Source: a bacterium (GTDB lineage Bacteria; Myxococcota; UBA727; JAUIJE01). Taken from it: a DNA stretch of 64,000 nucleotides. The first letter of the stretch is position 1; the number at the start of each line of letters is the position of its first letter. The translations under genes were made by a program, and so were the position numbers. This document shows, in pieces, positions 1 to 12,572 of this stretch. The stretch is taken from the NCBI GenBank assembly GCA_030431455.1, contig JAUIJE010000002.1:193294-257293 (forward strand), in the 5' to 3' direction. A model generated the notes under the pieces. It worked only from the letters and a program-made list of their open reading frames with translations. It was not told the DNA's origin and ran no database searches.

Positions 1-120
1 GCGCGTCACCGGCGGGAGTCGAACCCGCGCCACCAATCAAATGTAGTCTTCCCCCGCATTCGTCGAACCTGCCAAACGGCCCATCACTCCCTTCGTTCGA
101 TTTCGCTCCTGAACAATCTC
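1..120 (-). ncRNA. Candidate tRNA-like non-coding RNA element, possibly a YrlA-type Y RNA. It is partial and runs off the window start.
   Basis: The minus strand carries a near-perfect tRNA T-arm, GCGGG-TTCGACT-CCCGC (rc of 12..28), followed by a 7-nt acceptor-like 3' strand. Two more GGTTCGA/ATCGAAC T-loop-like motifs lie at rc 61..73 and 94..106. It sits immediately 3' of rsr on the same strand. No 5' acceptor partner is present, so it is not a canonical tRNA. Confidence 0.3.
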
Positions 121-245
121 TGCCCGACCTGCTGGTCAAACCTGATTCTGGTCTCGGCCGCACACCGTCTCCGGTGGCCCGGGGGGACGGCCCCATTGCC
201 GCCCCCCCCCCGCCGCGTACTGGCCCCAAAACGGGCCAAACTCAC

Positions 246-1820
246 TCACAACGTCACGCGCTCGATGCGGCGCACCCACCCGTCTGTGTCGTCGTCACCT
301 TGCGCAAACCGCGCCACCACGTTGAACACCTCGTCGGAAAAGCCGCCGACGTTCAAAATGTCCTGCGCGTTCTGCGCTTGCACCGTGCCGTAGGGCTGAA
401 TGTCAATGCAGACAAGCTTCGCCCCGGGATTGCGCGCACTCAAGATGCGCCAGGCCTCCATGGTGCGGGTGCCGCGGCCGATGCCCGCGTCCACCCACGA
501 TTCGCAATCCGACACCATCACCACCAAGTCCACCCGCGCCTGGTCGCGCACGAGCTTTTCGAGGGGCGCGGCACAGTTGGTGCCGCCCGACGGAATCTTG
601 GTGAGCCCGTCGGCGATGGTGAGCACGGTGTCCCGCGGGTTGAACGCGTGCTCGACCACCCGATCGTGGAACGGGATGAGCCGCGCCCGGTTGTTCTTCC
701 GCACCATCGCCGCCCCGAAGAGCGCGGCCACGTCGAGACAGCGCACCGCGGTGGTCGACCCGCGCCGGTACCCGGTCACCGGGCTCTGCATCGACCCCGA
801 CACGTCGATGCACACCGCCACGTCGCCGTCGATGCGGGGCACTTTTTGGAGCGCGACCTCCATCGCGTCCTGCAGCGCATCGGTGATGGGCCGCGGCATA
901 CCCCACGCGTTTTTGTACGCGGTCATCAACTGGTACGGGAACACCCGCGCCTTTTTGATCTCCTCCTTGTCCGCCAGGCGCTTGGCGATGGTCCGCACGA
1001 GGCGGGCATCGGTGAGCACGCCGTGGCGCGCAAACGTGTTCAAGTTCATGCGCGTCATCTGCCAACCGGCATCGCGCGCCACCTGCTTCCAGTCCTCGCG
1101 GTCGAGCCCGAGGCTCTGCACCATTTGGAACGGCACCTTCGGGGGCACCGCCCGACGAGAACCCGCCTGACGCAAGGCCTTGTAGGCCTCGTACTGCTGG
1201 ACCAGGTCCGGCAATGCCTCTGCGTCCACGTCCTTGCCGAGCAAGTACCCGTAGAACGCCGCGCGCTTCTCGGTCGCGGGCTTGGGGTGCACCATCTTGA
1301 TGATGTCCGCCATGCTCGGCGACTGGCCCACCGACTGGCGGAACAGCCACTCTTCGTCCCGCCCCGCCAACCACTCGCGCACCATGCGCTTGGGCCGGGT
1401 CCCGAGGGATTTACGGGGCACCGCCCCCGAGCGCATGATCTGCACAAAGTTGCGCAGCATCTTGCCGTTGTCGATCACGCGGCCGAAGATGTGCTCGGCG
1501 AGCTCGCCATGCTCGACGGTGAGCAGCGCCAAGAGCAGCGCGGGCACGTCCTTCATATACATTTTTTCGCGCATGTAGACCGCGCACTGGGCCACGAAGG
1601 CAGGATCGTCGCCGGCCACGTCGATGGCCGCCATCAACACCTCTTGCAGCTGGGTCTCGGCCCCCGCGTAAAAGGTGCGGTTGAGGCACCCGGTGGCGGT
1701 GTATTGGGCCAACGCCTGCTTGGCGGTGAGCTGGTAGGCCTTGCCTCCAGCTTCATTGCGCACGGTCGCGCGCGGAATGAGTTTGCCCACCACAGATTGA
1801 AACAAAGTTTTGTTGGCCAT
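246..1820 (-). CDS. rsr: Ro60-like ribonucleoprotein Rsr, with a TROVE domain and a C-terminal vWA domain
   Basis: 525 aa. It has a TROVE-like N-terminal region and a vWA domain with the MIDAS motif D-V-S-G-S-M (CIDVSGSM). The RBS GGGAGG lies 6 nt upstream of the ATG at 1820. The ORF-track start at 2006 is rejected because the terminator hairpin lies upstream of it. Confidence 0.88.
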   Translation of the reverse strand: MANKTLFQSVVGKLIPRATVRNEAGGKAYQLTAKQALAQYTATGCLNRTFYAGAETQLQEVLMAAIDVAGDDPAFVAQCAVYMREKMYMKDVPALLLALLTVEHGELAEHIFGRVIDNGKMLRNFVQIMRSGAVPRKSLGTRPKRMVREWLAGRDEEWLFRQSVGQSPSMADIIKMVHPKPATEKRAAFYGYLLGKDVDAEALPDLVQQYEAYKALRQAGSRRAVPPKVPFQMVQSLGLDREDWKQVARDAGWQMTRMNLNTFARHGVLTDARLVRTIAKRLADKEEIKKARVFPYQLMTAYKNAWGMPRPITDALQDAMEVALQKVPRIDGDVAVCIDVSGSMQSPVTGYRRGSTTAVRCLDVAALFGAAMVRKNNRARLIPFHDRVVEHAFNPRDTVLTIADGLTKIPSGGTNCAAPLEKLVRDQARVDLVVMVSDCESWVDAGIGRGTRTMEAWRILSARNPGAKLVCIDIQPYGTVQAQNAQDILNVGGFSDEVFNVVARFAQGDDDTDGWVRRIERVTL

Positions 1821-2002
1821 CGTGTCCCTCCCGGCAAATGTCCTGGGTTGCGGAAGACACTGCGCGAGGCGGGCCAACTTTCGTCGGTGACGTAAGATGC
1901 TGTTTTTATTGGATATTGTGAATCGTGGGCGGTTCCGGATTGATACAATGCGCTCGTATATTATCCAGCGAGATAGGCGATGCGCACGGTGCGGCCGCGG
2001 CC

Positions 2003-2047
2003 CCAAAAAAGGTGCGGGGGCCCGGCGACAAGCACCGGACCCCCGCT
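2003..2047 (-). terminator. Rho-independent terminator of the fasciclin gene
   Basis: On the minus strand a 12-bp GC stem GCGGGGGTCCGG/CCGGGCCCCCGC with a 9-nt loop is followed by ACCTTTTTTGG. It lies directly 3' of the stop at 2087. Confidence 0.6.
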
Positions 2048-2086
2048 GGTCTGGTCTGGGAAGACCGAGGAAGACCGAAGGAAGGC

Positions 2087-3973
2087 CTAATTGCTGGGCG
2101 GCAGGAGCACGGTGTCGATGACGTGGATGACGCCGTTGCTGGTTTCGATGTCGGTGTACGTCACCGTGGCGGCGCCGTTGAGCACCACGCCATCGGAGGC
2201 ATCGATGGCGATGGTGGGGTTGCCGGTGGCCGCGGTGGCCACGCTGGTCAGGCCCACCACGGTGGCGGCCAAGTTGGTGCCGGGCACGACGTGGTAGAGC
2301 AGCACGTTGGCCAGCTCCGCTTGGCTGAGGCCGCTGATGTCACCGAGGGCGGCGAAGGCTTCGTTGGTCGGCGCCAACACCGTGTAGGTGGTGCCGTCGT
2401 CGACCGCCAAGGTGGTGGCGAGGTCGGCGGTCACCACCGCGTCCACCAGCGACGAGAACCGGGGGTAGGCGGACAGGGCGTCGACCAAGTTCCCGGGGAA
2501 CACCGCCTCTTGGGGCAAGATCACGCCGTCCACGACGTGGATGAGCCCGTTTTGTGCGGGCACGTCGGTGGCGGTGACCTGGGCGGTGCCGTTGAGCACC
2601 ACGGTGCCGTTGTCGATTTGGATCGACAGCTCGGTGCTGTTGAGCATGGTGGCGGAGGAGAGCCCGACCACCGCGCCGCTGTCCACGATTCCATCGGTCA
2701 CGTGGTGCAAAAGAATGGGGGAGAGCGTGGGGGTCCCGGGCTCGCCCACGAGGGTGGCGACCAGGCCCGCGGGCAGAAGGTCGAACGCGTCGTCGGTGGG
2801 GGCGAACACGGTGAACGGCCCATTGGGCGAGCCGACATCGTCCGCGAGTTCGGCCGCGCCGAGGGCGGTGACCAGGGTGGAAAAGCCCGCGTCGGTGGCC
2901 ACGGTGGGGATGTCCCCGGGGGGCAAGAGCACCGCGTCGATGACGTGGATGACGCCGTTGGTGGTCTGGATGTCGGTGAAGGTCACGTTGACGGTGTCGT
3001 TGAGCACCACGCCCCCATCGACCACGTCCACGGTCACCGGCGCGCCCAGGGCGGTCTCGGCGGTGACGAGGCCGACCACGGTCTCGGCGGTCACCGCGCC
3101 GGGGACCACGTGGTAGAGGAGCACGTCGGCGAGTTCGGCTGGGCTGAGGCCGCTGATGTCGCCCAGCGCGGCAAACGCGTTGTTGGTGGGGGCGAACACG
3201 GTGAAGGTGTTGGCCTCATCGCCGAGGGTGGTGGCCAGGTCCGCGGTGACCACCGCGTCGACCAGGTCTGAGAACCGTGGATAGCTGGACAGGGCGTCAA
3301 CCAAGGTGCCCGGGAAGTCGTTGCCGGGGACGAGCACGCCATCGAGCACGTGAATCACGCCGTTGTCGGCCACGATGTCGGTGGCGGTGACCTGGGCGGT
3401 GCCGTTGACGACCACGGTGCCCTGGTCGACCTGGATCGTGATGTCGCCGTTGAGGGTGGTGGCGCTGTCCAAGGTCACCACCGTGTCCTCCCGGACGTCT
3501 CCGCTGATCACGTGGTGCTGCAAGATGCCGGTCAGGGTGGGCACGTCCGCCAACAGGGCGTCGACCAACCCCGCCGGCAACGCCGCGAACGCGTCATCGG
3601 TGGGCGCCAAGACGGTGTACAGATCCTCCCCGTCCAGGGTCTCGACCAAACCCGCCGCGGTCACCGCCGCCACCAGCGTGTCGAAGTTGCCGTCGCTGCT
3701 CGCGATGTCCACGATGCTGTTGTCCCCGTCACCATCACCATCACCATCACCATCCCCATCCCCATCTCCGTCGCCATCCCCATCCCCATCCCCATCACCG
3801 TCGCCGTCGCCATCCCCGTCGCCGTCGCCATCGCCGTCGCCATCGCCGTCCCCGTCACCATCGCCGTCGCCATCACCATCGCCCGCGGTGTCGCTGGGGC
3901 AGGCGGTCAGGCCGAGGGGAAGAGCGGCCATGAGCGCGGCCACCAGTGTCATTGTCCAGGTTTGTTTCAGCAT
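2087..3973 (-). CDS. Secreted lipoprotein with four fasciclin (FAS1) domains and a long (Gly-Asp)n linker
   Basis: There is a signal peptide with a lipobox (LGLTAC). The FAS1 signature TVFAPTNxAF recurs four times. About 33 GD dipeptide repeats follow the lipobox. Confidence 0.9.
   Translation of the reverse strand: MLKQTWTMTLVAALMAALPLGLTACPSDTAGDGDGDGDGDGDGDGDGDGDGDGDGDGDGDGDGDGDGDGDGDGDGDGDGDGDGDNSIVDIASSDGNFDTLVAAVTAAGLVETLDGEDLYTVLAPTDDAFAALPAGLVDALLADVPTLTGILQHHVISGDVREDTVVTLDSATTLNGDITIQVDQGTVVVNGTAQVTATDIVADNGVIHVLDGVLVPGNDFPGTLVDALSSYPRFSDLVDAVVTADLATTLGDEANTFTVFAPTNNAFAALGDISGLSPAELADVLLYHVVPGAVTAETVVGLVTAETALGAPVTVDVVDGGVVLNDTVNVTFTDIQTTNGVIHVIDAVLLPPGDIPTVATDAGFSTLVTALGAAELADDVGSPNGPFTVFAPTDDAFDLLPAGLVATLVGEPGTPTLSPILLHHVTDGIVDSGAVVGLSSATMLNSTELSIQIDNGTVVLNGTAQVTATDVPAQNGLIHVVDGVILPQEAVFPGNLVDALSAYPRFSSLVDAVVTADLATTLAVDDGTTYTVLAPTNEAFAALGDISGLSQAELANVLLYHVVPGTNLAATVVGLTSVATAATGNPTIAIDASDGVVLNGAATVTYTDIETSNGVIHVIDTVLLPPSN
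3700..3890. repeat. Imperfect hexanucleotide tandem repeat (GTCDCC/GGHGAC)n encoding (GD)~33
   Basis: Runs of gtcgccatc/gtcaccatc units inside the fasciclin CDS form a low-complexity coding microsatellite. Confidence 0.8.
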
Positions 3974-4124: not shown

Positions 4125-5717
4125 ATGGCCACGGTGGCGTACGGCATGTTGGGCACGACCCTCGATCGCATGGGCGCGCGGCGTTGGGATCGCTGGCGCC
4201 CGACGGTGGGGCTGTGCCAACAAGACGACCTGCTCATCGACAAGCTGGTGCTGCTGCACCCCGCCCGGAGCAAACGCCTGGGACATGAGGTGCAGCAGGA
4301 CATCGCCACGGTGTCGCCCGAGACCTCCGTCGAGCTGGTCGAGCTGTCGTTTCGCAACCCCTGGGACTTTGAAGAGGTCTACGGCAAGCTCTACGCGTTC
4401 TTGCAGACCCAGACCTTCCGCCCCAGCCGCGACGACTACCTGGTGCACATCACCACCGGCACCCACGTGGCCCAGATCTGTTGGTTCTTGCTCACCGAGA
4501 GCCGCCACATCCCCGCGCGCTTGGTGCAGACCTCCCCGAGCAACCAAAAGGAGGACGTGGCCGGGCGCGCCGACGTCATCGACCTCGACCTCTCCAAGTA
4601 CGACGCCCTCTGGCGGCGCTTTGCCAAAGAGCGCGAAGATGCACTGACATTCCTCAAGTCCGGCATCGCCACCCGCAACGAAGCGTTCAACGCCCAGATC
4701 GAACAGATCGAGCGCGTGGCGCTCTCCTCCAAAGAGCCCATGCTGCTCATGGGCCCCACCGGGGCGGGCAAGTCGCACCTCGCCTCCCGCATCTACGAGC
4801 TGAAGAACACCCGCCACCAGACCTTCGGGGACTTCGTCGAGGTCAACTGCGCGACCCTGCGCGGGGACGGGGCGATGAGCGCGCTGTTTGGGCACAAAAA
4901 GGGCGCGTTCACCGGGGCGAGCACCGACCGGGCCGGCCTGCTCAAGAAGGCGGACAAGGGCCTGCTCTTCCTCGACGAAATCGGCGAGCTCGGTCTCGAC
5001 GAGCAGGCCATGTTGCTGCGCGCCCTCGAGGACAAACGGTTCTTGCCCCTGGGGGCGGACAAGGAAGTGGACAGCGACTTTCAGCTCATCGCCGGCACCA
5101 ACCGCGACCTGTCCGAGCGCGTGGCCGAGGGCGGCTTTCGCGACGACCTGCTCGCGCGCATCGACGTGTGGACCTTTCGCCTGCCCGGGCTGCGCGACCG
5201 CATCGAGGACCTCGAGCCCAACCTCGTGTTCGAGCTCGACCGGTTCGAGCAGCGCTACCGGGGGCGGGTCACGTTCAACAAGTCGGCCAAGGCGCGTTAC
5301 CTGTCGTTCGCCACGTCCCCGCACGCGACCTGGGCGGGCAACTTCCGCGACCTGAACAAGAGCGTCACCCGCATGGCCACCCTCGCCCAGGGAGGGCGCA
5401 TCGACGACGAGGTGGTGCAGGGCGAGATCGAACGGCTTGCGCAAAGCTGGGCCAAGACCACGCCGCTGTCCGACGCACAGAAGTTCGCCCGGGACCTGCT
5501 CGGGGACGAGGCCTGGGCCGACATCGACCCGTTTGACCAGCCCCAGCTGGCCCACGCGGTGTTCGTGTGCCGGCAGGCCAAGAGCTTGTCCGAGGCGGGG
5601 CGCACCCTGTTCGCGGTGTCGCGGCAAAAGCGGCGCTCGACCAACGACGCGGACCGGCTGCGCAAATACCTCGCCCGGTTCGGCCTCAGCTATTCACAGA
5701 TTCAGGAGGCCTCGTGA
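4125..5717 (+). CDS. rtcR: Sigma54-dependent transcriptional regulator RtcR, with an N-terminal CARF-like sensor, an AAA+ sigma54 activator domain and a C-terminal HTH
   Basis: 531 aa that are colinear with E. coli RtcR from the N-terminus (MATVAYGMLGTTLDRMG...WRPTVGLCQQ...) through the Walker A motif GPTGAGKS and the GAFTGA loop to the C-terminal RLRKYLARFGL. The upstream 254 codons of the ORF-track call are antisense to the fasciclin gene and are rejected. Confidence 0.92.
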   Translation: MATVAYGMLGTTLDRMGARRWDRWRPTVGLCQQDDLLIDKLVLLHPARSKRLGHEVQQDIATVSPETSVELVELSFRNPWDFEEVYGKLYAFLQTQTFRPSRDDYLVHITTGTHVAQICWFLLTESRHIPARLVQTSPSNQKEDVAGRADVIDLDLSKYDALWRRFAKEREDALTFLKSGIATRNEAFNAQIEQIERVALSSKEPMLLMGPTGAGKSHLASRIYELKNTRHQTFGDFVEVNCATLRGDGAMSALFGHKKGAFTGASTDRAGLLKKADKGLLFLDEIGELGLDEQAMLLRALEDKRFLPLGADKEVDSDFQLIAGTNRDLSERVAEGGFRDDLLARIDVWTFRLPGLRDRIEDLEPNLVFELDRFEQRYRGRVTFNKSAKARYLSFATSPHATWAGNFRDLNKSVTRMATLAQGGRIDDEVVQGEIERLAQSWAKTTPLSDAQKFARDLLGDEAWADIDPFDQPQLAHAVFVCRQAKSLSEAGRTLFAVSRQKRRSTNDADRLRKYLARFGLSYSQIQEAS

Positions 5718-10557: not shown

Positions 10558-11670
10558 CTAGACGAACTGCACCGCGACGCGTTCGAGCACGGCTTCGAGC
10601 GCACGCTGCCGGGTGGCGGCGGTGAGCAGCGTCCTCTTTTGGCTCTCGAGGTGCTGCAGGGCCTGGTCTTGCGCGGTGGGGGCGAGGTCGGTGACCGCCA
10701 ACGCCTTGCGCAGGTTGTCGAACATGTCGTGGGTGGTGACCTGGAGGGACAAGCTCCCCGCCACCGCGTCGAGGAACCGACCGCAGAACGCGCGGTAGGT
10801 GGCCTCTTGCCGCATGTGGGGGTCGGCGAAGAACTGGTCGCGCAGGCGGGCGATCTGGTCGTCGGGCGCGCCGGCGCAGACCCATTCCGCGGCGTGCGCT
10901 TGCCACATATCGCGTAGGCTCTCGCGCACCGCGGTCTCGGGCACGGGGATGACCCGGCGCTGCTGCAACTTGCGCAGGACCTTCTCCTCGGCCTCGCGGA
11001 CCATGGCTTGGCCCATGCCGAGCTTGAGCTCTTCGGCGATGGCGGCGTCGACCTCGTCCGCGGTGTGGCCGTAGCCGAGCGCGGCGAACAGCCCCGCGGG
11101 GTCGCGGGCGATGACTTCCTTGGCCGCGTGCACGCAGACCACGAACACCGCGGTCTTGCCCGCCAGGCGCAGCGAGGGGTGAGAGGTGCCGAAGGTCACG
11201 GGCACGGACAGCTGCTGGCCGATCTTGCTGCCGGCGATGCCTTCGAACAGGCCGGGGAGCTCTTCGTGGGGCGTGGCCGTGAGCCACACGCCCCGGCGGG
11301 CGGAGACGAGCTCGCCGGATTCGTAGCCCACGCAGTCGACGAGGATTTCGTCACCCAACGCCACGGTCTCTTCTTCGGTGCGGGTGCGGGTCTCCGCGTA
11401 GGCGCTGAGCAGCTCGCGCTTTCTGCGTTCGACCTCGGCGGGCCCGATGGCTCCCCGGGCCCGGACCCGCACAGCGACATTGTCGAGCAGGCGGAGGTCG
11501 AGGGCGGGGGCAGCACCGGCGGCCGACCCTGGCGTGGCCAGGGCGAGGTCCCGGGCGCGGGGGGTCGTCGAGGTGGGCCGCGGGGTGTGGGCGGTGCGTT
11601 GCGCGATGCGGCGGGGACGGGGGGCGCCGGCTTTTTTCGACGCGCGGGGGGTGGTGGTGCGGATGCCCAT
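10558..11670 (-). CDS. Trigger-factor-like protein with an FKBP-type PPIase domain and the trigger factor C-terminal domain. It lacks the ribosome-binding N-domain.
   Basis: The segment GDEILVDCVGYESGELV...LPGLFEGIAGSKIGQQLSVPVTF matches the trigger factor PPIase domain. The N-terminus is a basic Pro/Arg-rich segment instead. Confidence 0.7.
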   Translation of the reverse strand: MGIRTTTPRASKKAGAPRPRRIAQRTAHTPRPTSTTPRARDLALATPGSAAGAAPALDLRLLDNVAVRVRARGAIGPAEVERRKRELLSAYAETRTRTEEETVALGDEILVDCVGYESGELVSARRGVWLTATPHEELPGLFEGIAGSKIGQQLSVPVTFGTSHPSLRLAGKTAVFVVCVHAAKEVIARDPAGLFAALGYGHTADEVDAAIAEELKLGMGQAMVREAEEKVLRKLQQRRVIPVPETAVRESLRDMWQAHAAEWVCAGAPDDQIARLRDQFFADPHMRQEATYRAFCGRFLDAVAGSLSLQVTTHDMFDNLRKALAVTDLAPTAQDQALQHLESQKRTLLTAATRQRALEAVLERVAVQFV

Positions 11671-11759
11671 GGCGGACCTCGATGAACGTGTGGACGGGAA
11701 CAGGAGAACGAGCACAGAGGAAAGGGGCGCGCCGCCGGTCCGGCGCGCCCTTTCGCCGG

Positions 11760-12572
11760 CTACTTGATGTTGCGGATGGCGCCCATCGCGCTTTGGTGCA
11801 TGGTCGAGAGCACGTTGGAGAGGGTCTGCATCATCTGGGAGATTTTGTTCATCTCCTGTTTGATCTTCTCGAACTGAAGTTGGCGGCTGTCGGGACCTTC
11901 GCCCCCGGCGGTGGACCCGGTGCCGCCCGCGGCTTGGCCGGTGGTGCCGCCGGTCGACCCAGTGCCATTGCCCCCGGTGGTCGCGCCGGTGCTGCCGCTG
12001 CCGTTGGCGGGCCCGCTCTCCATCTGACGAATGCTCTGCTCGACCTCTTGTTCCATGTTGCTGATCATCTTCATCATGAACGCGGCGAGGATGTCTTCGA
12101 AGAACATGCCGCCCCCCGACTTGCCGCCGAGCAACGAGGGCAGCGAGCCCGCGCCGAACTGACCGGGGTTGGCGCTGCGCATCTGACCGGTCATCGGGCG
12201 CGCCACGTCGAGGGGATCATTGCCGAGCGAACGGTCCGCGCTCGACGACGCCAAGGGCGACATCGGCGCGCTTTGCATCTCGCCGTTCGGAGGTTGCGGT
12301 TTGTTGGCTTGGACCTCGGACAACGCCTGGGCCACCGCGTTCATGGCTTTGGCTTTGGCCCCTTCGATCATGGCTTTGACCGAGTCGCTGGCGCCGCCTT
12401 GGATGTCTTCGAGCTTCTCGATCTTTTGGAAGACGTCTTTGAGCTCTTTGGTGAGGCTCTGCATCACCGACTGGGCTTTGCCGATGTCTTTGGCGTCGGC
12501 CTTGATGTCCTGCAGCGCGTTCTTGAAGAGGTCGAAGTTGAAGTTCTGGGCGGCGGGGCTGGAAACGTTCAT
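11760..12572 (-). CDS. Hypothetical protein rich in Gln, Met, Lys and Gly, with coiled-coil character
   Basis: 270 aa with clearly lower GC and Lys-rich codon use than its neighbours. The amino-acid composition is diverse, unlike the antisense artefact ORF at 11682..12680. Confidence 0.7.
   Translation of the reverse strand: MNVSSPAAQNFNFDLFKNALQDIKADAKDIGKAQSVMQSLTKELKDVFQKIEKLEDIQGGASDSVKAMIEGAKAKAMNAVAQALSEVQANKPQPPNGEMQSAPMSPLASSSADRSLGNDPLDVARPMTGQMRSANPGQFGAGSLPSLLGGKSGGGMFFEDILAAFMMKMISNMEQEVEQSIRQMESGPANGSGSTGATTGGNGTGSTGGTTGQAAGGTGSTAGGEGPDSRQLQFEKIKQEMNKISQMMQTLSNVLSTMHQSAMGAIRNIK

Follow-up and report, generated by a model that had tools for sequence, protein, structure and literature searches.

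The closest described counterpart of the element reported here is YrlA of Salmonella Typhimurium (RF02553; tRNA-like domain in PDB 6CU1), which likewise lies 3' of rsr on the same strand (PMC4201824; 10.1101/312249), in the operon rsr-yrlBA-rtcBA (PMC7790460). YrlA is a stable small transcript bound by Rsr, the bacterial Ro60, with T and D loops that are modified by TruB and DusA (PMC4201824; 10.1101/312249). The acceptor-like stems of most YrlA RNAs are predicted to be poor substrates of RNase P (10.1101/312249), and the seven-base-pair stem of Mycobacterium smegmatis YrlA makes that RNA an RNase P substrate, to which CCA is then added (PMC4201824). The Y RNAs of metazoa and Yrn1 of Deinococcus radiodurans follow the same logic, namely a basal stem that binds Ro60 and a second module that recruits or gates an effector, which in Deinococcus is PNPase in the RYPER complex (10.1101/312249). 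Yrn1 differs in being encoded upstream of rsr, orders its T- and D-like arms differently and is thought to have evolved independently (PMC4201824), whereas the metazoan Y RNAs are devoid of a tRNA-like module.

We describe an element of this kind at the very start of a 64-kb stretch of bacterial DNA (the window, by which we mean this whole stretch), where it runs along positions 68..1 of the minus strand, the strand of rsr, 177 nt downstream of the rsr stop codon. Read 5' to 3' from 68 to 1, its letters are GUUCGACGAAUGCGGGGGAAGACUACAUUUGAUUGGUGGCGCGGGUUCGACUCCCGCCGGUGACGCGC. We consider it probable, at roughly 0.88, that a gene for a YrlA-type Y RNA begins here and that these positions cover its first half, the back half of which would lie beyond the window edge. 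The finding adds one rsr-linked YrlA to a family that has been known since its description in 2014 and has a curated Rfam entry.

Anatomy of the element at the window start

The published criteria for locating Y RNAs of this type concern strand, distance and motif (PMC4201824), and the element lies on the strand of rsr, less than 4 kb from the Ro60 orthologue, and displays the motif GNCGAAN0-1G near its 5' end. With Salmonella YrlA it shares the order of this motif, a stem, a V region, a tRNA-type T arm and an acceptor-like stem (Table 1). The T arm (28..12) is placed 5' of the acceptor-like strand CGGUGAC (11..5), which is the permuted order. The original prediction, drawn from the letters and their reading frames, had proposed a tRNA-like element and candidate YrlA-type Y RNA at this place, with a textbook T arm and an acceptor-like 3' strand. 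Both parts are borne out: the former is GCGGG-UUCGACU-CCCGC with five perfect pairs closing a loop of 7 nt, and the latter aligns with positions 62-68 of the covariance model R1 described below.

Two other particulars of that prediction held in part. The element had been assigned to positions 1-200; its site at the start of the window stands, and the span that it occupies narrows to 1-68. Two further T-loop-like motifs had been noted close by, and their letters are indeed present (GGUUCGA, 69..63; AUCGAAC, 101..95). As T arms, we reject both, for neither has a flanking stem and neither was picked up by any model. The first of them, GGUUCGA, makes up the 5' side of the basal, Ro60-binding stem (GUUCGACGA, 68..60) and overlaps the GNCGAAN0-1G instance GACGAAUG (64..57); its likeness to the T arm amounts to a 10/11 direct repeat, in a strand that varies freely among the relatives.

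The relatives described below further allow the missing half to be sketched. The partner of the basal-stem strand is expected to read UCGUCGAAC, beyond coordinate 1, and that of CGGUGAC is expected to read GUCACCG, outside the window. Roughly, the 3' half may run ...GUCACCG - UAGCUCA..GGUAGAGC - GUCUUCCCCC - CYYG - UCGUCGAAC, in which GUCUUCCCCC would be the approximate partner of GGGGGAAGAC and UAGCUCA..GGUAGAGC the D arm. The closure of the acceptor hairpin, the D arm and both return strands would fall beyond coordinate 1, and the run-off at the window start that had been pointed out earlier is seen again in the matches of both R1 and RF02553, each of which is flagged as cut at its 3' end.

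Table 1. Positions of the candidate Y RNA, its parts and the features around rsr (window coordinates)
Feature	Position	Strand	Remarks
YrlA-type Y RNA, 5' half (candidate)	1..68	-	~68 of an expected 130-140 nt; window edge cuts the 3' end
GCGC, loop start of the acceptor-like hairpin	1..4	-	R1 alignment; window end
CGGUGAC, first strand of the acceptor-like stem, comparable to the tRNA 3' acceptor strand	5..11	-	model positions 62-68
T arm GCGGG / UUCGACU / CCCGC	12..28	-	5 perfect pairs, 7-nt tRNA-type loop; model positions 45-61
Variable linker (V region), from stem module to T arm	29..40	-	unpaired, length-variable model columns
Second stem, 5' strand GGGGGAAGA, running into ACUACAU	41..55	-	R1 alignment
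GACGAAUG, instance of GNCGAAN0-1G, proposed Ro60 contact	57..64	-	direct reading; motif definition from PMC4201824
Basal stem, 5' strand GUUCGACGA, Ro60/Rsr-binding module	60..68	-	paired model positions 1-9 (R1)
G+C-rich spacer, rsr stop to Y RNA	69..245	-	177 nt; G10 run; hairpin 180-212 (inverted repeat)
rsr, Ro60 orthologue (TROVE + Ro60-type vWA)	246-1820	-	524 aa; Pfam
Sigma-54-like site TGGCCCGCCTCGCGCA (GG-N10-GC)	1861..1876	-	40 nt before the rsr ATG; 3 mismatches to consensus
Intrinsic-terminator-like hairpin and U tract, after the fasciclin gene	2014..2046	-	14-pair stem, then ACCTTTTTTG
rtcR, sigma-54 enhancer-binding activator of RNA-repair operons	4125-5717	+	divergent from the fasciclin-rsr-YrlA strand

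Covariance models and the rsr loci of other bacteria

A search with the Rfam covariance models, which had been suggested along with the original prediction, was run permissively on window positions 1-2100 and returned a single match, to YrlA (RF02553). It covers 66..1(-) and model positions 1-58 of 114 at 17.1 bits (E 3.4), a score that is not significant alone, and the gathering score of 69 bits is out of reach for a half-molecule. As this fragment score proves nothing by itself, we collected rsr loci for comparison, 59 from species-representative genomes and 51 from metagenomes, in which Rsr is at most 58% identical to that of the window. In a search of 5.8 billion proteins the closest Rsr, the protein itself aside, reached 61% identity at most, and the closest proteins (58-61%) come from Acidobacteriota and Myxococcota. 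An exact 32-mer scan of metagenome contigs gave no match.

In the collected loci, the succession of GAAUGC, ACUAC and a T loop occurs 73 times within 900 nt after rsr, and the copy in the window is the 74th. The units have a fixed layout, which begins with a 5' stem strand, GAAUGC, a stem, ACUACAU, a linker and the T arm, and continues with a 7-bp hairpin, the D arm (UAGCUCA..GGUAGAGC), a return strand, CYYG, and UCG with a second return strand. We built the model R1 from a MAFFT sequence alignment of 40 full-length rsr-adjacent units. RNAalifold predicts five helices for this alignment, with 32 pairs in total, and compensatory changes occur at 25 of these pairs. An explicit count of pairing gave 98.8% of cells paired, with double changes again in 25/32 pairs; sliding the partners by 1-3 columns lowers pairing to 41-48%, and the covariation score of 0.689 stands against 0.197 in shuffles, none of 500 of which reaches it. 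Compensatory changes affect 7/9 pairs of the basal helix (helix 1), which was partly selected since the extraction rule demanded its pairing, whereas helices 2-5 are unselected; they affect 6/7 pairs of helix 2 and all 7 pairs of the acceptor-like stem. GAAUGC is invariant in 40/40 of these relatives, as are ACUACA and, in the T arm, GGUUCGA..CC. RF02553 scores the complete rsr-linked relatives at 43-86 bits, and five of them attain or surpass its gathering score (69); hence, the family modelled in R1 is YrlA.

Applied to the 64 kb, R1 returns a single significant match, the element at 68..1(-), with 30.9 bits and an E value of 2.2e-7, covering model positions 1-72 of 133. Together with the YrlA identity of the relatives, this upholds the earlier assignment of the element as a YrlA-type candidate. 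The T arm alone yields 13.0 bits with R1, which leaves about 18 bits to the Y-specific 5' part. In the part of the 40-relative alignment that it covers, the window agrees with 22/22 invariant columns and with 27/27 columns conserved at 90% or more, and its GACGAAUG aligns to the invariant CGAAUGC of the relatives.

These figures also bear on the idea that the element is a decayed or truncated remnant of a YrlA gene, a pseudogene consisting of the 5' half only that gives no functional Y RNA. Its 3' half is indeed outside the visible sequence, and turnover of such units is suggested by the arrays of the relatives, which mix unit scores from 23 to 125 bits. In addition, four loci from Myxococcales/Nannocystaceae (L023, L025, L029 and L040) have 55-75 nt ahead of their first unit, which is shorter than the 177-nt spacer here. 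Nevertheless, the intactness of all 27 conserved positions and a perfect T arm are not expected of a decaying copy, and the element is the sole Y RNA candidate beside an intact rsr in the window. We therefore regard a remnant as improbable and favor the 5' half of an intact YrlA-type gene.

Over 112 loci, comprising the 110 rsr loci and the Logan contigs L001 and L002, R1 gives 311 matches at E<=1e-3, all but one of which are on the strand of rsr; a match of at least 70 bits is present in 43/59 genome loci and 22/51 metagenome loci. Eight rsr loci have no YrlA at the Rfam gathering score, and most of these hold R1 matches of 74-118 bits. In nine others, 5/12 YrlA matches reach 69 bits and the remaining 7 score 43-69 bits. 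The Rfam gathering score for YrlA misses most homologues in this Acidobacteriota/Myxococcota-type clade (L023, L040, L046, L016 and other loci), and a clade-specific covariance model recovers many more of them. Compared with YrlA as described, the relatives in the clade of the window combine a 7-bp acceptor-like stem with the invariant ACUACAU and mostly fall below the gathering score.

In several relatives, large arrays of Y RNAs encoded on the same strand flank rsr, with up to about seven units per locus (e.g. L049:11628-12934, L023:11600-12419, L027:8421-9893, L020:2046-2897 and L015:9215-9911). In loci of the Pyrinomonadaceae type these arrays are mostly upstream of rsr, not downstream. 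Between rsr and the YrlA-type units of relatives we also observed many YrlB-like units of 60-70 nt, which consist of the stem with GAAUGC..ACUAC and lack the tRNA module (e.g. L047:11564-11629, 11654-11720 and 11753-11819; L059:11565-11631 and 11649-11715); such stem-only units score 30-47 bits with the tRNA module deleted. The window element has in common with YrlB and the stem-only Y RNAs the basal Ro60-binding stem with the GAAUGC and ACUAC motifs. Unlike YrlB, it belongs to the tRNA-like (A) type, since its T arm is complete and leads into an acceptor-like stem. We found no second Y RNA, YrlB-like or stem-only, in positions 69-245, where R1 with its filters off gave only a 7-bit hairpin; the locus differs in this respect from that of Salmonella, as no YrlB-type unit separates rsr from the window YrlA.

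tRNAs, tRNA-like topology and the permuted form

A T arm on its own is indistinguishable from that of a tRNA, and tRNAs arranged in tandem are known to produce spurious YrlA matches (PMC4201824). It could accordingly be argued that the element is a fragment of a tRNA or tmRNA, such as the remnant of an integration site, or a chance hairpin resembling a T loop, with the adjacency to rsr being a coincidence. ARAGORN, however, calls neither a tRNA nor a tmRNA in the 64 kb, the Rfam tRNA model finds nothing at E<=10 in window positions 1-2100, and the minus strand of positions 1-400 has no D-arm-like UAGCUCA at up to one mismatch. Within the same 400 positions, this upstream minus strand offers neither an exact complement of CGGUGAC nor a partner for GGGGGAAGAC; the one near-complement that could act as a 5' acceptor strand, GCCACCG at 178..172, has a mismatch and is not followed by a D arm. 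A canonical tRNA with a cloverleaf was thus looked for and rejected, and the earlier statement that a 5' acceptor strand is lacking holds. The absence of the 3' return strands upstream of the element is as expected for the permuted topology. Moreover, the Y-specific GACGAAUG and ACUACAU precede the T arm at the correct spacing, and the position on the rsr strand, 177 nt after rsr, is as in dozens of rsr loci. A tRNA fragment or chance hairpin is hence a very improbable source of the element, and we retain the reading as the 5' half of a YrlA-type Y RNA.

A different kind of Y RNA was encountered just after rsr in two Myxococcales metagenome-assembled genomes (L008:11811-11927 and 11963-12088; L014:11809-11930). 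These units have an open acceptor stem of 6-7 bp, a D arm and a T arm, and in the place of the anticodon arm they carry an arm of 56-64 nt with the Y RNA motifs (CCUCGUCGG-GNRA-CCGAAUGC..GGGACUACAU), so that the Ro60-binding stem is capped by GAAA, GCGA or GCAA tetraloops. With the Rfam tRNA model the two L008 units obtain 45 and 52 bits, none of the units is called by ARAGORN, and the minimum-free-energy folds of L008 unit 2 and of L014 are cloverleaves. This form accounts for only three units among 110 loci. The units are the un-permuted counterpart of YrlA, of which we found no description in the Y RNA literature consulted, and this rare variant may bear on the origin of YrlA from tRNA.

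The existence of such units beside rsr in two Myxococcales genomes raises the question of whether the window element is one of them, i.e. a non-permuted Y RNA with an open acceptor stem and a Ro60 stem closed by a tetraloop, complete in the window and ending at about position 3. The UCGAAC at 100..95 could in principle pair with the GUUCGA at 68..63; however, such a pairing would not keep the register of the conserved CGA/UCG pairs, and window positions 1-250 hold neither a closed hairpin of the form UCG..loop..CGAAUGC nor an upstream D arm. The upstream minus strand described above likewise lacks the D arm (UAGCUCA at up to one mismatch) and the GGGGGAAGAC partner that this form calls for, its only 5'-acceptor candidate is mismatched, and the Rfam tRNA model, which recognises the units of L008 with 45-52 bits, has no match in window positions 1-2100 at E<=10. 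We consider this form as remote a prospect for the window as a tRNA fragment, and the permuted YrlA, cut by the window edge, remains the preferred reading.

The seven-base-pair acceptor-like stem of M. smegmatis YrlA invites comparison with the 7-nt strand in the window and the 7 covarying pairs of the relatives, although the organisms are unrelated and the window has a G+C content of 67.7%. As the full 7-bp stem is the determinant for cutting by RNase P and addition of CCA in M. smegmatis YrlA, one may speculate that the RNA of the 7-bp-stem clade normally works as a processed, two-piece Y RNA with tRNA-like ends and not as a closed permuted mimic. The fully un-permuted form is fixed in L008 and L014, and tRNA and YrlA would thereby be connected by a natural series of circular permutations. 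We regard this proposal as unlikely, if conceivable.

Genomic setting and a proposed mode of action

The protein encoded by rsr matches both domains of the family above their Pfam cut-offs (vWA_Ro60 PF25045 at 66.2 bits and TROVE PF05731 at 32.2 bits). With the NCBIfam Rsr equivalog it scores 91.7 bits against a cut-off of 900 bits, which marks it as a divergent Rsr. The rtcR gene lies some 2.3 kb away from the start codon of rsr, with an unrelated fasciclin gene and its own terminator between the two; its product scores 798.8 bits with the NCBIfam equivalog for RtcR (NF038308; cut-off 650 bits) and matches the Pfam domains RtcR and Sigma54_activat. As the terminator-like hairpin separates the fasciclin gene from rsr, the latter probably has its own promoter. 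The sigma-54-like site TGGCCCGCCTCGCGCA upstream of rsr is a candidate for an RtcR-dependent promoter, one that is only suggestive because it has three mismatches to the consensus and because 64 equally good sites occur on both strands of the G+C-rich window.

By tblastn, no rtcB was found in the 64-kb window, and rtcA is also absent from it. Among the relatives, rtcB follows directly after the Y RNA array in the Polyangia loci L037 and L039, and unrelated genes occupy this place in other loci. It is plausible that rtcB and rtcA lie beyond coordinate 1, and the target operon of RtcR is presumably rsr-YrlA with whatever follows there. The result supports annotating the locus as an RtcR-associated Ro60/Y RNA module.

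Drawing on studies of Salmonella, Mycobacterium and Deinococcus (PMC4201824, 10.1101/312249, PMC7790460), we posit that the element functions along the following lines. The RNA would share a transcript with rsr, probably one that starts at a promoter under the control of RtcR and sigma-54, and would then be trimmed to about 135 nt. In the full RNA, of some 130-140 nt, the two ends would pair as a basal stem; with its GNCGAAN0-1G motif, GACGAAUG in this case, the stem might dock on the ring of Rsr. The middle would fold as a circularly permuted tRNA, in which the T arm is followed by an acceptor-like hairpin, closed and 7 bp long, and then by a D arm. The elbow of this tRNA-like module could act either as a gate on Rsr or as a tether between Rsr and an effector, for example PNPase, under stress involving RNA damage or repair.

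The spacer between rsr and the element folds with a minimum free energy of -80 kcal/mol (z -2.57). It includes a G/C-rich hairpin at 179-213 (CGGGGGGACGGC / GCCCCCCCCCCG), with a C10 run on the plus strand. Two Logan contigs that encode the exact Rsr protein are identical to the window over 2137..180 and 2128..180, and a third, from a cluster-mate of Rsr (clustering at 90% identity), ends at about window position 179. Three independent short-read assemblies of the locus thereby stop at 179-180, right after the G10/C-rich hairpin. One of them (L113) has a run of 7 bases in the place of 10, which points to either a polymorphism in homopolymer length or a trouble spot in sequencing.

Upstream of rsr, from the terminator to the sigma-54-like site, we observed an A+T-rich island at 1895-1980 (52% G+C over 1901-2000 against 67.7% for the window), which may serve rsr as an enhancer or other regulatory region. 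The fasciclin gene between rtcR and rsr (2087-3973, minus strand) codes for a protein of 628 aa with four FAS1 domains, the N-terminus of which bears a lipoprotein-like signal followed by about 29 Gly-Asp (GD) dipeptide repeats. Between its stop codon (2087) and the terminator hairpin (2046..2014) there is a perfect tandem duplication, GGAAGACCGA x2, at 2059-2078.
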